Positions 1 through 64,000 of a stretch of 64,000 nt of DNA are shown piece by piece. The notes beneath the pieces are model-generated. The model searched no databases. It had not been told where the DNA came from and saw only the letters and a program-made list of their open reading frames with translations. The translations under genes and the position numbers were made by a program. This DNA comes from an uncultured Bacteroidales bacterium (GTDB lineage: Bacteria; Bacteroidota; Bacteroidia; Bacteroidales; VadinHA17), in contig CAVOWZ010000001.1 in assembly GCA_963700275.1 (NCBI GenBank), positions 344,151 through 408,150 of the forward strand, read 5' to 3'. Within the stretch, counting starts at the first letter, position 1; the number at the start of each line of letters is the position of its first letter.

Positions 1-95
1 AGGATAATAGATATTAATGTCCTACGGACAATTATTCCTGATCAGACATCCCATTTCTATTGTCATAAATGCCCTGACGGGCAAAATGTGGCATG
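1..95 (-). repeat. Two degenerate inverted copies of the REP-like unit that forms the adjacent tandem array
   Basis: Reverse complement of 14-35 (ttgtccgtaggacattaa) and of 51-90 (ttgcccgtcagggcatttatgacaatagaa) matches the hairpin plus tail of the 52-bp unit at 123-428. Confidence 0.55.
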
Positions 96-122
96 TAAAG
101 ATCCTTTATTAATTTCCCGTTT

Positions 123-428
123 GGTATTTTTTAATCCCTTTTTCCCATAGGGAATTAATGACAATAGAACCATTGGTATTTTATGATCCCTGTTTCCCGT
201 AGGGAATTAATGACAATAGAACCATCGGTATTTTATGATCCCTGTTTCCCAGGGAATTGATGACAAGAGAACCATCGGTATTTTATGATCCCTGTTTCCC
301 GTGGGGAATTAATGACAATAGAACCATCGGTATTTTATGATCCCTGTTTCCCGTAGGGAATTATTGACAATAGAACCATCGGTATTTTATGATCCCTGTT
401 TCCCGTGGGGAATTAATGCCAATAAAAT
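123..428 (+). repeat. Tandem array of about 6 head-to-tail REP-like units of 50-52 bp, with no spacers
   Basis: Consensus ggtattttatgatccctgtttcccgtagggaattaatgacaatagaaccatc. Units start at 123, 175, 227, 277, 329 and 381. Each contains a cccgtaggg hairpin. Confidence 0.9.
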
Positions 429-513
429 GTATCCGGAGCTCCATTAACAATTTCATGGGGTACCTGTAATAAAATAGATTAATACCCTACTTGCAATTTT
501 TATGAATAAATCC

Positions 514-4344: not shown

Positions 4345-4671
4345 CATAGCCGTCAACCTACGTAGTTTTGGGGACAAAAGTTTCCCCTCCTATTTTTAAG
4401 GAGGGGTGGCCAGACTACGAAGTCATCTAACGATCAGAAATCTAAATGGTCTGGCCGGGGTGGTTGACTCAATATGAGAAATAAGTCCACTCCTGCTGAA
4501 TCCGTTTAACCACCCCGGCCGGGAAAGCAGAATTGTAACCATTTTTAAATCAGCAATCCCGGCCACCCCTCCTTAAAAAAAGGAGGGAAACTTATTTGTA
4601 TATAAACCAGGCTATTACACTAGTTTTCGTTACTAAAATATTCCTTGGGTTGACGGCTATGCCCTATACCC
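4345..4671 (+). mobile_element. MITE-like nested-palindrome element, copy A (non-coding derivative of the DUF559 element)
   Basis: TIRs catagccgtcaacc / ggttgacggctatg. Internal modules cccctcc-loop-ggaggggtggccagac...gtctggccggggtggtt, then a core, then aaccaccccggccggg...cccggccacccctcc-loop-ggaggg. Confidence 0.85.
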
Positions 4672-13704: not shown

Positions 13705-14412
13705 GTGAAAAATATACTTGATGAGATTAAGGCGGAAATAATAAAAAATGCCGATGAAAAGACAAGGTTATCCGGTGAAAGATTCTTTAAGGAGCATGTA
13801 AAAATCCACGGGCTTAAATCAGCTCAGATTAATCTGATTGCCCGTGAATTCTACAGGAAATTACCCGACAGGAACAGATTAAATGTTCTGGATCTATGTG
13901 AAGAATTATGGCAATCGGGGTACCTTGAAGAAACGGGCATAGCCTGTATATGGTCCTATAATATAAGGAAAGAATATCTTCCTGAAGATATCAGGGTTTT
14001 CGAAAGATGGGTGAGGGAATATGTAACCAACTGGGCATCATGTGATACACTATGTAATCATACTATCGGGACCTTTATTGAAATGTATCCTTCATATCTG
14101 GCTGAACTGAAAAAATGGACAATGTCAGAAAACCGCTGGGTTAAACGTGCTTCTGCCGTCTCCCTCATTGTTCCTGCAAGAAGGGGCAAATTTCTTAAAG
14201 ATATATTTGAAATTGCCGGTTTACTTCACTCCGATCCCGATGATATGGTACAGAAGGGCTATGGCTGGATGCTGAAGGCTGCAAGTCAGGCTCATCAAAA
14301 GGAAGTATTTGATTATGTCATGAAGAAAAAGGCCACAATGCCGAGGACGGCCCTGAGGTATGCTATCGAAAAGATGCCGGCAGATCTTAAGGCGAAGGCG
14401 ATGGCAAGGTGA
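13705..14412 (+). CDS. DNA alkylation repair protein (AlkD-like HEAT-repeat family)
   Basis: 235 aa. WASCDTLCNH, WVKRASAVSLI and GYGWMLK motifs. GTG start. Confidence 0.7.
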   Translation: MKNILDEIKAEIIKNADEKTRLSGERFFKEHVKIHGLKSAQINLIAREFYRKLPDRNRLNVLDLCEELWQSGYLEETGIACIWSYNIRKEYLPEDIRVFERWVREYVTNWASCDTLCNHTIGTFIEMYPSYLAELKKWTMSENRWVKRASAVSLIVPARRGKFLKDIFEIAGLLHSDPDDMVQKGYGWMLKAASQAHQKEVFDYVMKKKATMPRTALRYAIEKMPADLKAKAMAR

Positions 14413-14422
14413 GGGGTGAGGG

Positions 14423-14740
14423 CATTGCCGTCAACCTTAGGAGTTTTGGGGACAATAGTTTCCCCTCCTTTTTTTAGGGAGGGGTGGCCAGACTACAAAA
14501 TCATCTGACGTGCAGAAATATAAATGGTCTGGCCGGGGTGGTTGATTTAAGTCTGAGAAATTAGTCCTCTTCTGATGAATCCGTTTCAACCACCCCGGCC
14601 GGGAAAGTAGAATTGTAAACATTCTAAAATCAGCAATCCCGGCCACCCCTCCTTTAAAAGGAGGGGAAACTTATTTGTTTATAAAACAGATAATTACAGT
14701 AGTTCTCATTATCAAAATATTCCTTAAGTTGACGGTTATG
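14423..14740 (+). mobile_element. MITE-like nested-palindrome element, copy B
   Basis: Collinear with copy A over its full length (by eye roughly 85-90 percent identical). TIRs cattgccgtcaacc / agttgacggttatg. Confidence 0.85.
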
Positions 14741-16535: not shown

Positions 16536-17056
16536 CTAGCCGTCAGACTAAGGAGTTTTGGGGATAAAAGTTTGAACAATTTCGGGTTCCTGAAACACAA
16601 ACCTGTTCTCGAACCTTAGAACAGTGAATCCCAATGCTTCAAGATATTTGTCCCTGGTAATATCTTTCAGGATCTGTATTGAATCCCCATGAGGATCTCC
16701 ATCAAGTTCAATTATCAGCTTTTCTGATGGACAATAGAAATCAACTATATAATTACCGATACTTTGCTGTCTTCTGAATTTTCTTCCTTCAAGATTCTTT
16801 GACTTTAGGTATTTCCATAAAACAGATTCAGCAGAAGTGGACTTATTTCTCAGATATGTTCTGAGCGGTTTGAGACTTTTTCGGTTGAAGAGGTGATTGT
16901 TATCCATTAAAATAAAAGTAATAAGAAAATAGATCAACCACCCCGGCCAGAAAATTTATATTTCTGCACGTTAGATGATTTTGTGGTCTGGCCACCCCTC
17001 CTTAAAAAAAGGAGGGGAAACTTTTGTGCCCAAAACTACGTAGGTTTACGGATATG
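16536..17056 (-). mobile_element. Gene-bearing (putatively autonomous) member of the MITE family, copy C
   Basis: Same TIRs and 5' hairpin module as copies A, B, E and F, but it encloses the DUF559 ORF. The ORF stop and last codons lie inside the TIR. Confidence 0.75.
16548..16907 (-). CDS. DUF559 endonuclease-domain protein (Vsr / PD-(D/E)xK-like fold)
   Basis: LRNKSTSAESVLWKYLK...YIVDFYCPSEKLIIELDGDPH...VLRF is the DUF559 signature. ATG at 16907 preferred over the TTG at 16937, which lies in the hairpin module. Confidence 0.85.
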   Translation of the reverse strand: MDNNHLFNRKSLKPLRTYLRNKSTSAESVLWKYLKSKNLEGRKFRRQQSIGNYIVDFYCPSEKLIIELDGDPHGDSIQILKDITRDKYLEALGFTVLRFENRFVFQEPEIVQTFIPKTP

Positions 17057-34717: not shown

Positions 34718-34809
34718 GAAGTAAAGATAAGGAATACGGCGCAAAGGCACAAAGGGATTACCGGTAGTTCAATGATGTGAAGTGGGAGAGAAGGTGAGGG
34801 GGAGATTGG

Positions 34810-34943
34810 CATAGCCTTCAACCTAAGGACTTTTAGGGACAAAAGTTTCCCCTCCTTTTTAAGGAGGGGAAACTTATTTGCCTATAATCCAGATAATTAC
34901 AGTAGTTTCCGTTATTAAAATATTCATTAAGTTGACGGCTATG
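34810..34943 (+). mobile_element. Minimal derivative of the MITE family, copy D
   Basis: Both TIRs (catagccttcaacc / gttgacggctatg) and a single cccctcc-loop-ggagggg hairpin. Everything between the two hairpins of the long copies is absent. Confidence 0.8.
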
Positions 34944-63083: not shown

Positions 63084-63303
63084 CATGGCCGAAACCTAAG
63101 GAGGTTTGGGATTTAAGTTTCCCCTCCTTTTTTCAAGGAGGGGTGGCCGGGATTGCTGATTTTGAAAAGTTTACAATTATGCCTTCCCGGCCGGGGTGGT
63201 TAAAACGGATTCAGGAGAAGTGAACTAATCTCTCAGAATTACATCAACCACCCCGGCCAGAATATTTACATTTCTTCACGTTAGACGATTTTGTGGTCTG
63301 GCC
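63084..63303 (-). mobile_element. MITE-like element, copy F, truncated at 63303
   Basis: Collinear with copy E from the TIR catggccgaaacc to gtctggcc. The final acccctcc hairpin and TIR are missing. Confidence 0.8.
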
Positions 63304-64000
63304 AGGCATTTAAATTGATCTTCTTTACTATCATATTCAAAACGATCTGAAAGAAAGGTTTTCTTATTGTGACCGTGAGTTTTTTCGATGTCAAATGATG
63401 TTATATTTTACATAGTTACCAAGCTTCTGGTCTGTTATATAACTTATAGTTCTCCTCACTGCCATATCCTGCATCTGCTATGATATTTGCCGGCAGCGCT
63501 TTTAGCTGTGTTTTTACCTTATCAAAGAACGGGATTAATACAGATGTATCCGCAGCTTTCTGATATATACCGTAGCTCAATATAAACTGATCCTCAGTTG
63601 CGATCTGAACATTATATGCAGGCTTTAACTGACCCATTCCAAGATGATCTTCTTTCATACGAAAGAATGTGGCATCTATGTCGGTTTTTGAACAGCTGTT
63701 GCGCTGCTGTAACATATCTTTCTGCTGCTCATACTTTTTCAACTTTGGCACGTACTCATTTTTAAGCTTTTTGACCTCAGAGGTTACTCGTTTTGATTTT
63801 GTCCCATTTGATAGTTTCTGGTTGATATCATCTACCAGCTTCTCAACCTTCTCTGCTGTTATATGGCCCTCTAACTCTTCCAGGTTATGTATACCGTATT
63901 CAGCATCTTCCTCTTTCTGAAGTTGTTCAATGTGAGATAATAATTTTTTTACTCTTTCTTTCGTCTTAGATTCATGCCTTTCTACATTCTTCCTCCATAT
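63304..64000 (-). pseudogene. IS1182-family transposase fragment (runs off the window, frameshifted and 3'-truncated)
   Basis: SKTDIDATFFRMKEDHLGMGQLKPAYNVQIATE...ADAGYGSEENY. The frame is open to position 64000. Downstream pieces NYVKYN and FDIEKTHGHNKKTFLSDRFEYDSKEDQFKC lie in other frames and stop at the MITE junction. Confidence 0.75.

Follow-up and report, generated by a model that had tools for sequence, protein, structure and literature searches.

The repeat of about 320 bp described here, of which copy A occupies positions 4345-4661 of the window (the whole stretch of 64 kb of Bacteroidales DNA that was analysed), is best explained as a transposon carrying the remains of a nuclease cassette. 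The copies are non-autonomous MITEs of an IS4-family insertion sequence of the IS231 subgroup, of mobile-insertion-cassette descent, with a gutted DUF559 cassette as interior and with triplex-type module ends that most likely act as DNA; we give this joint explanation a probability of about 0.72. According to it, a transposase supplied in trans would recognise the 20-bp ends and insert the element at GC-rich palindromic sites with 10-bp duplications. The interior is not derived from the transposase; it is a gutted passenger cassette in which a Vsr-like PD-(D/E)XK gene of the DUF559 family lay between two inverted modules of about 95 bp. Where replication, transcription or supercoiling separates the strands, each G-rich half would fold into a hairpin, a clamp and a third strand, and the two folded halves would delimit a cargo slot.

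In the roughly 80%-complete Bacteroidales genome, the element was found at about 59 loci (copy A and about 58 others) with one rigid plan. The spacing between the parts was also rigid genome-wide, T-39-H-16-53-X-53-5-H-82/48-T, which agrees with the shared and conserved multi-stem plan proposed in the initial annotation. All occurrences of GGCCGGGGTGGTT (81 of 81), GGAGGGGTGGCC (69 of 69) and the CCCCTCC/GGAGGGG-type hairpins (73 of 73) in the 4.9-Mb genome fell within this element family. Identity to the majority base was 97-100% in the GC blocks, 91-94% in the loops, 90-92% in the TIRs and 83% in the core; the stems are conserved above the loops and the loops are still kept, as had been stated.

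The window contains six copies (Table 1). Copies A, B and E follow the full plan, C has one module together with an intact DUF559 gene, D has 134 bp and F is truncated. The common module order claimed for A, B, E and F was present in all four, except that the last hairpin and TIR of F are missing from the window and lie beyond its end, past a 1-kb IS1182 transposase fragment (63305 onward). The core is 42-45 nt long and not 36 nt. Two end subtypes do exist, with hairpin-to-TIR spacings of 82 and 48 nt, and the extra AT-rich sequence measured 34 bp instead of about 50 bp. The gene-context check agreed that all six copies are intergenic and that A, C and E lie between convergent gene ends; B and D lie between tandem genes.

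Table 1. Parts of copy A and the other copies of the element in the window.
Feature	Position	Strand	Remark
TIR-L of copy A, CATAGCCGTCAACCTACGTA	4345..4364	+	IS231-subgroup end signature; same TIR bounds autonomous IS in L172 and L166
Hairpin H1: CCCCTCC 4384-4390, 9-nt loop, GGAGGGG 4400-4406	4384..4406	+	Invariant among the copies of the genome
GGCC-clamped hairpin H2: GGCCAGAC-33 nt-GTCTGGCC	4408..4456	+	Stem covaries across 279 distinct modules
G-box GGCCGGGGTGGTT; GGGGTGG 4457-4463 is the third-strand block	4453..4465	+	Also 5' arm of long-range stem H3
42-nt core of copy A, cargo slot	4466..4507	+	In-frame remnant of DUF559 N-terminus (..LRNKSTSAESV..)
C-box AACCACCCCGGCC, complement of G-box	4508..4520	+	3' arm of H3; minus-strand third-strand block of right module
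GGCC-clamped hairpin H4: GGCCGGG-34 nt-CCCGGCC	4517..4564	+	
GGCCACCCCTCC, then hairpin H5 (CCCCTCC, 9-nt loop, GGAGGG; hairpin 4566-4587)	4561..4587	+	
AT-rich right subterminal segment, long subtype, hairpin-to-TIR spacing 82 nt	4588..4641	+	80% conserved, among the least conserved parts
TIR-R of copy A	4642..4661	-	
Copy B, full-length, same plan as copy A	14423..14740	+	
Copy C, a single module with one TIR (16936-17056) adjoining an intact DUF559 gene (16548-16937, -)	16536..17056	-	
Copy D, 134-bp short form, TIRs and single CCCCTCC/GGAGGG hairpin	34810..34943	+	
Copy E, full inner architecture, opposite orientation, short end subtype	59365..~59646	-	
Copy F, truncated; hairpin 63121-63142, H4, C-box, G-box, core and H2 present	63121..63304	-	

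The element ends are 20-bp TIRs, CATAGCCGTCAACYTAAGGA, with target duplications of 10 bp. The end CATAGCCGTCAACCTAAGGA fits the IS231-subgroup signature CAT-------AA--TAA--- at positions 1-3, 11-12 and 15-17, and the duplications reported for this subgroup are 10-12 bp (De Palmenaer et al. 2008, PMC2266710 Table 1). Duplications of 10 bp were identified at C6:263375 (CCCTTTAGGG) and C16:77185 (GGGTTAACGG), and those at C8:604292 and C11:341259 matched at 9 of 10 bases each; at the flanks of copy A, no recognisable target duplication was seen. The G-rich flanking words mentioned in the initial annotation are the sites that the transposon targets, which are palindromic and rich in GC.

The autonomous partner expected for such an element has a single-ORF DDE transposase with a YREK motif, Y(2)R(3)E(6)K. 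An element of 1646 bp from the same genus (L172) had the same TIRs and the target duplication CCCCCAACCC, and its transposase carried the YREK motif in YRIRWQIELIFKIWK and matched NF033592 with 195 bits (cut-off 115). A similar autonomous element with the same TIRs was identified in L166. Autonomous partners of 1.6 kb are present in sister species, and no autonomous IS231-type element was found in the 80%-complete host genome.

Several other origins were rejected. A cyanobacterial Nezha-like MITE did not fit, as HIP1 was not enriched and the related records were Bacteroidales MAGs. Neither IS1182 nor IS1380 is the parent: the copies of IS1182 end in a TIR of their own, GGGGGTGTTGAAAAAGT, and are nested at hairpin H1, and the IS1380 copy (L067), also with separate TIRs, lies within the cargo slot with a duplication of 5 bp. 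The core-site orientation, as read from the sequence, was unfit for an integron attC-like site. A literature search found no description of this element.

Between the same arms we observed a deletion series of 416, 141, 126, 117, 105, 84 and 44 nt, of which the 416-nt form is an intact ORF of 125 amino acids belonging to DUF559 (PF04480, E = 8e-35). A gene for this 125-aa protein is located at C10:55028-55657. The core is an in-frame remnant of this endonuclease gene. Each module of about 95 bp consists of the hairpin CCCCTCC/GGAGGGG, a GGCC-clamped hairpin and then GGGGTGG, and the full element has two of them, inverted. The same modules bracket DUF559 genes in MAGs of Acidobacteriota and Armatimonadota (Fimbriimonadaceae) without IS231 TIRs. 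Among 72 metagenome DUF559 loci, 40 had a G-box upstream and a C-box downstream (2 of 72 in the reversed-motif control); 28 of these 40 had no IS231 TIR, and their GC content ranged from 0.32 to 0.61. Since the modules bracket DUF559 genes without IS231 ends, they belong to the nuclease cassette and not to the transposase, and their conservation across phyla is independent of the IS231 ends. Neither the DUF559 origin of the core nor the fact that the modules are foreign to the transposase's own element had been noticed in the initial annotation.

These data also bear on the fallback offered there, that the structure merely reflects DNA palindromy needed for mobility. The modules would then be extended IS231-type subterminal repeats serving the transposase, with no independent existence. 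The whole element is indeed a long imperfect palindrome bounded by TIRs, and IS231 left ends are conserved past the TIR (PMC2266710). However, the GC modules are entirely absent from the autonomous L172 and L166 with the same TIRs, they occur in other phyla without IS231 ends and they are better conserved than the TIRs, while 134-bp short forms without the inner module still carry TIRs at several loci. We therefore consider this explanation highly improbable.

The close company of module and gene could also mean that the modules are cis sites of the cassette's own DUF559 nuclease, which would recognise or cut the folded ends or the abutted G-box/C-box palindrome. The gene might be copied into empty modules in the style of homing endonucleases, or the repeats might be maintained or multiplied in the style of REP/RAYT, and the IS231 ends would be only a second vehicle. 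It is matched with the strict co-occurrence of module and gene in at least three phyla and on many metagenome contigs, mostly without IS231 ends, with box sequences conserved beyond the needs of pairing and beyond the TIRs, and with putative catalytic residues that are invariant between phyla. Gene-less module pairs with cores of 8-24 nt exist, stand-alone copies are found in two Acidobacteria MAGs (38 and 25 boxes), and the Vsr/DUF559 fold group includes a homing endonuclease such as I-Bth0305I (PMC3424549). On the other hand, no cleavage site, activity or pair of empty and filled alleles is known, and the one DUF559 protein studied, VsrA of Caulobacter, acts like a nuclease of the mismatch-repair type (PMC12907096). 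The gene-less copies in the host genome are deletion scars, and their spread is explained by transposition because they have IS231 ends with target duplications. A role of the modules as nuclease sites thus appears rather unlikely.

In its widest form, we may speculate that the mirror-image triplex-type modules and the DUF559 gene are one self-contained selfish element across phyla. Its nuclease would copy or maintain the cassette by acting on the ends, either folded or as a palindrome, the BoxC/PIT/TM repeats would be its gene-less relics, and in the host genome the IS231-type transposon would have captured it and amplified the relics to about 59 loci. This is a tentative idea that we hold to be doubtful, and the joint explanation of a transposon with a gutted cassette is preferred in the following.

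Folding of the modules was examined in 279 distinct sequences. The clamp stem was 96/95/90% Watson-Crick paired, with the pair types GC, CG, AT and TA, and its covariation score was 0.253 versus 0.104 in shuffles, none of 500 of which reached it. Structured DNA is supported by these compensatory changes in the GGCC-clamped hairpin, and selection for pairing is supported for at least one stem. In the left triplex-type module, the clamped hairpin H2 makes up the second loop, and the third block GGGGTGG (4457-4463) mirrors GGAGGGG (4400-4406) and is not complementary to it. The right module has the same pyrimidine/purine/mirror layout on the minus strand. The third block also changes together with the hairpin: CCTCCCC/GGGGAGG had GGWGGGG as its partner in 12 matches, from 8 loci (versus 1 with GGGGWGG), and CCCCTCC/GGAGGGG went with GGGGWGG in 40 loci (versus 4 with GGWGGGG), a mirror covariation that may rest on few independent evolutionary events.

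Judged from its sequence, the module is of the purine-motif (class II) intrastrand-triplex type with the layout of the BoxC/PIT/TMECO repeats (Hoyne et al. 2000, as cited by Holder et al. 2015, PMC4666352), and it may form a triplex in the cell. The layout of pyrimidine, purine and mirror purine and the inverted pairs are described in PMC4666352, according to which TMECO showed no stable triplex in vivo, and formation was seen in vitro for the E. coli sequence only. Loop 1 has 9 nt. In the host genome, loop 2 measures about 50 nt and contains an 8-bp clamp hairpin, far beyond the limits quoted for PIT/TM motifs (1-6 nt in ITxF, 0-10 nt as the definition of Hoyne et al. is cited); some relatives have a short loop 2, of 2 nt (L243) or 13 nt (L142). 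A search for compensation in the long-range stems H3 and P1 by fuzzy matching, which was swamped by chance matches, gave only a few clean compensated variants (L052, L140 and L027). With four GGCC boxes meeting, the four-way junction suggested in the initial annotation can be drawn on paper; any two such modules in inverted order would give it automatically.

Both strands folded equally against the controls, with z-scores of -9.7 (RNA, plus strand), -9.5 (RNA, minus strand) and -8.7 (DNA). Departures from pairing in the three best stem pairs were 7 G-T and 5 A-C in 837 cells. No Rfam match at gathering score was found in the 64-kb window, and copy A gave only chance hits with E-values of 0.3-0.4. 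Of the two forms considered earlier, cruciform DNA or structured RNA, structured DNA is retained, and RNA is disfavoured by the lack of strand bias and of any Rfam match and by the cargo gene, which takes both orientations with respect to the modules. The stems are most likely folded DNA ends of the cassette rather than an RNA gene.

If the stems acted as RNA, H1 and H5 might serve as intrinsic terminators, facing outwards and insulating both the cassette and its neighbours, and the two ends of the DUF559 mRNA, 5' and 3', might be brought together by pairing of the G-box with the C-box, or the whole element might be a structured non-coding RNA. The terminator scan did pick out H1 (minus strand) and H5 (plus strand), with T-rich tails (AAACTTATTT for H5); three of the six copies in the window lie between convergent genes, the RNA z-score reaches about -9.7 and the clamp hairpin covaries. 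But the opposite strand folds equally well and G-U is not in excess over A-C, and H2 and H4, with their 33-nt loops and without U-tails, are unlike terminators. The convergent-gene location is explained by the preference of the transposon for GC-rich palindromic targets. The GGGGTGG/GGAGGGG relation is one of mirror symmetry and not complementarity, a signature of purine-motif triplexes that has no RNA-pairing rationale and argues against RNA; such triplexes do not form in RNA (PMC4666352), and PIT elements were without promoter or terminator activity in work cited by the same paper. An action as RNA is therefore improbable.

The cargo slot appears to be a hot spot where sequence is deleted, inverted or duplicated and where other mobile elements invade. 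The short form without the inner module, as in copy D, is a deletion between two directly repeated hairpins. The cargo gene was found in either orientation relative to the modules, and an inversion was seen between L056 and the host genome. Tandem G-box units were present in L004, L115 and L142, and an IIC-like group II intron, IS1182 and IS1380 have landed in the element. It suggests that folding of the modules might cause these rearrangements, a reading that is correlative.

To our knowledge, the BoxC/PIT/TMECO repeats are abundant in bacteria, their origin, mobility and function are not known, and repeats of the BoxC/PIT/TM type have been unexplained since the 1990s. Here, a module of this triplex type forms the conserved ends of a nuclease cassette, which a classical transposon carries and has multiplied in the host genome. 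It means that the repeats gain a vehicle and a candidate protein partner, and that the large DUF559 family gains a genomic context. As a landing pad for the IIC-like group II intron and other IS, the element is relevant for mobile-element nesting and genome instability in Bacteroidales. In annotation, the copies are to be treated as transposon relics and masked; they should not be called RNA genes.

Among known systems, the element shares with MIC231 and the IS231 MITEs the end signature, the GC-rich dyad-symmetric target sites with 10-bp duplications, the YREK DDE transposase of the autonomous partner and the passenger DNA between IS ends; non-autonomous derivatives of those elements are mobilised in trans, and the same is predicted here. 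It differs in its host, a member of Bacteroidales; the published description places the subgroup almost exclusively in Firmicutes (PMC2266710). Moreover, its passenger, a DUF559 cassette, brings structured inverted ends of its own, the passenger gene is gone from most copies, and the host genome showed no autonomous copy.

Like the REP/REPIN-RAYT systems (REPtrons), the cassette has an enzyme gene flanked by inverted structured repeats, which are also scattered without the gene. But the enzyme is a DUF559 PD-(D/E)XK nuclease and not the HUH Y1 (RAYT) transposase by which a REP/RAYT gene is recognised, and the spread in the host genome is explained by IS231-type transposition, with no evidence for the enzyme acting on the repeats. 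Free-standing or Vsr-like (EDxHD) homing endonuclease genes such as that of I-Bth0305I likewise encode small nucleases that belong to the Vsr/DUF559 fold group, and lie between the halves of a palindromic sequence; our cassette differs in that it sits in neither an intron nor an intein, without a known recognition site or demonstrated homing.

A structural parallel exists with BoxC/PIT/TMECO: three consecutive blocks of pyrimidine, purine and mirror purine with T opposite A (G.G-C, T.A-T), the G/C-rich class II layout, intergenic position, inverted pairs, loops less conserved than stems and an association with rearranged loci. The blocks themselves are different, CCCCTCC/GGAGGGG/GGGGTGG here versus CCCTCTCCC/GGGAGAGGG/GGGTGAGGG in E. 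coli, and so is the second loop, a clamped hairpin of about 50 nt here (2-13 nt in some relatives). Holder et al. 2015 (PMC4666352) found TMECO-type repeats to have no link to any mobile element; the pairs described here enclose a nuclease gene and are carried by a transposon.

The ~320-bp repeat is best read as an IS231-type MITE that holds a decayed DUF559 cassette, with the cassette's two inverted, triplex-type ends forming the conserved stems and acting as DNA. The modular order that the initial annotation gave for copy A was matched exactly on reading the sequence: terminal inverted repeat (TIR), CCCCTCC-loop-GGAGGGG hairpin, stem GGCCAGAC(33 nt)GTCTGGCC, GGCCGGGGTGGTT, core, AACCACCCCGGCC, stem GGCCGGG(34 nt)CCCGGCC, second CCCCTCC/GGAGGG hairpin and the other TIR. 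In the window's own genome (4.94 Mb, 22 contigs, ~80% complete) we identified ~59 family loci by blastn, with the rigid spacing TIR-39-hairpin-16-53-X-53-5-hairpin-82 or 48-TIR, where X, the distance between two 13-nt boxes, is the sole variable. These loci contain 81 of 81 genomic GGCCGGGGTGGTT, 69 of 69 GGAGGGGTGGCC and 73 of 73 hairpins. Identity to the majority base, computed on 18 long copies, was 97-100% for the GC blocks, 90-92% for the TIRs, 91-94% for the loops and 83% for the core. The core measured 42-45 nt instead of the 36 nt first reported, and the extra end segment 34 bp instead of ~50 bp. All six window copies are intergenic, with A, C and E between convergent gene ends, as had been noted. 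Copy F is truncated, copy C retains one module plus a gene, and copy D (134 bp) belongs to the short form.

Clean 10-bp target duplications (CCCTTTAGGG, GGGTTAACGG, CCCCTCAGGG) flank several copies of the family, whose ends read CATAGCCGTCAACYTAAGGA. Ends and duplication length both match those tabulated for the IS231 subgroup, of which passenger DNA is a hallmark (PMC2266710). Two congeneric genomes contain autonomous partners of 1.62-1.65 kb with identical ends, one partner being flanked by the 10-bp duplication CCCCCAACCC. The single transposase that they encode is a DDE enzyme with the YREK motif (NF033592, IS4 family, 195 bits), and the GC modules are absent from these autonomous elements. 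The neighbouring IS1182-family transposase was rejected as parent, being nested at the first hairpin with its own ends GGGGGTGTTGAAAAAGT; so was an IS1380 element of a related MAG, another nested insertion that carries ends of its own and a 5-bp duplication. The MITE copies are inserted at GC-rich palindromic repeats. Several loci share the flank ..GCTCCCCGCTTTGGCG / CGCCAAAGCGGGGCAGGCTC.., and the flank word GGTGAGGGGTGAGGG is similar to the third block that TMECO has in E. coli.

The values of X were 55-58, 96-97, 115-118, 129-139, 429 and ~1935 nt. In the 416-nt insert, a DUF559 gene of 125 aa (PF04480, E = 8e-35) is intact; the gene lies either way relative to the modules. Shorter inserts are its nested deletion derivatives, and the 44-nt core that they share comes in frame from the gene's N-terminus (LRNKSTSAESV). 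The 134-bp short forms are without everything between the two hairpins, which are direct repeats, so that slippage or recombination between them accounts for the missing inner part. The closest solved structure to the DUF559 protein is 3hrl, and among DUF559 proteins the single one so far characterised is a Vsr-like repair nuclease (PMC12907096). The DUF559 nuclease may use the modules, though this is less likely than not.

A half-module pattern scan of one-genome-per-species contigs gave at least 115 stretches, mostly from Bacteroidales or Bacteroidota MAGs, the others from two Acidobacteria gp5 MAGs and a Fimbriimonadaceae MAG. An IS231-type end lies within 260 nt of about half of the Bacteroidota half-modules. 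The Acidobacteria MAGs, with 38 and 25 of the 13-nt boxes, also hold small DUF559 genes bounded by these modules in inverted order; the flanks are unique, and IS231 ends are absent. The Fimbriimonadaceae DUF559 gene, the only one of its genome, is directly adjoined by an array of seven 45-nt minimal units, into which its open frame appears to continue, and has one inverted unit on its other side. As an independent sample, 80 metagenome loci were collected by DUF559 protein similarity (46-76% identity), and the 72 with adequate flanks were counted. GGGGTGGT upstream together with ACCACCCC downstream was present in 40 of these 72 (reversed-motif control, 2/72), a hairpin on at least one side in 51/72 and an IS231 end on either side in 12/72, 11 of which fall among the 15 closest, low-GC relatives. 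The modules are part of the DUF559 cassette and not of the transposon.

The three pairs beyond GGCC in the clamp hairpin are Watson-Crick in 96, 95 and 90% of 279 distinct modules, against 42, 70 and 47% in shuffled controls, and GC, CG, AT and TA pairs all occur. The proposed covariation check gave a score of 0.253 against 0.104 ± 0.009, reached by 0 of 500 shuffles (RNAalifold and a pair counter agreed; slid controls, 0.04-0.09), on a seed set stratified by stem type, which inflates diversity and not the pairing rate; the 279-module count is the unbiased one. These patterns indicate selection for pairing in the GGCC-clamped hairpin. Wobble is near-absent and symmetric (7 G-T vs 5 A-C). The suspected fold of copy A was borne out against shuffled controls for RNA of the plus strand (z = -9.7), RNA of the minus strand (-9.5) and DNA (-8.7); RNA does not form purine-motif triplexes (PMC4666352), and a discrete RNA gene is unlikely. 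The outer hairpins score as terminator-like and may be transcription terminators; for PIT elements no promoter or terminator activity was reported (PMC4666352).

GGGGTGG mirrors GGAGGGG, T standing opposite A. Each half is thus laid out as pyrimidine, purine and mirror-purine blocks, like the class II purine-motif intrastrand triplexes of the BoxC/PIT/TMECO repeats (PMC4666352), which would explain why the blocks are invariant. If so, the swapped hairpin CCTCCCC/GGGGAGG should go with the third block GGWGGGG. It did so in 12 matches (8 loci), against 1 match with GGGGWGG, and the canonical hairpin had the reversed preference (GGGGWGG in 40 loci, GGWGGGG in 4); related loci may be among those counted for either form.

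The cargo slot between the boxes appears to be a hot spot of change, with inversions and tandem box duplications besides the deletion series. A group II intron of 1876 nt (RF00029, RF01999) makes up the 1.9-kb inserts, which occur in three MITE copies outside the window. Its reverse transcriptase matches TIGR04416, and the nearest solved ones are IIC enzymes. The intron is inserted exactly 3 nt past the G-box GGCCGGGGTGGTT, on either strand. EBS1 lies at intron nt 250, and its UUUAAC pairs with GUUAAA of IBS1; in the copy at the other site the two differ by a matched change (AUUAAC opposite GUUGAU); EBS2 was looked for in the intron and none was found. IS1182 copies are located at or in CCCC(C)TCC/GG(A)AGGGG(G)-type hairpins, which this element seems to target: the fragment in copy F lies between outer hairpin H1 and clamp stem H2, the full copy adjoins a MITE end at the place of H1, and in another genome the loop of a CCCCCTCC/GGAAGGGGG hairpin holds IS1182. 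An IS1380-family element occupies the cargo slot of a related cassette, and a mini-element lies within the 5' arm of the H1/H5 outer hairpins in several Bacteroidales MAGs. Elsewhere in the genome, the L037 stretch may be a foreign or mis-binned segment.

Coordinates of the features (C-numbers, contigs of the window's own genome; L-numbers, related loci)
Feature	Position	Details
Copy A	window 4345-4661	
Tandem repeat (repeat-search family D1)	window 71-456	six head-to-tail copies of ~52-nt unit; unrelated to MITE
MITE insertion sites (examples)	window 14396-14422, 34793-34809; C5:78642; C6:150639; C11:463437	
IS1182 transposase fragment in copy F	window 63305-64000, running on to C1:408523	codons ~51-385, 99% identical
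Full IS1182 copy	C22:70540-72303 + C21:1-475	TIR GGGGGTGTTGAAAAAGT
Group II intron (L039, L040, L042)	C6:150891-152766; C18:184851-186726; C9:64824-66701	
L037 stretch	C6:313407-316562	many long overlapping high-GC open frames; genome 41% GC
IS1380-family element (L067, Bacteroidales MAG KA25)	~666-2417, reverse-complement reading	NF033539, 203 bits; TIR CCTAAAGTGAGCGATT; 5-bp duplication TAATA
Mini-element, ~75 nt (..GGCTGGCCCCTACGCTAAAATTGCCCACTGGGCAATTTTTTAACGCTCGG..)	L056 3690-3775; also L067, L069, L105	
Array of 45-nt units (L142/L188, Fimbriimonadaceae MAG)	L142 515-830	CCCCTCC-loop-GGAGGGG-T-GGCCGTCAGGCC-GGGGTGGTT

TMECO repeats are also found as inverted pairs, and no link of such repeats to mobile elements was found (PMC4666352). 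What is added here is a DUF559 cassette captured and amplified by a classical transposon, as well as a test of mirror covariation and a homing site of the intron. The published BoxC/PIT/TMECO searches applied a short-loop criterion, which the second loop in this genome exceeds, being ~50 nt long and holding a clamp hairpin; some relatives have loops of 2-13 nt.
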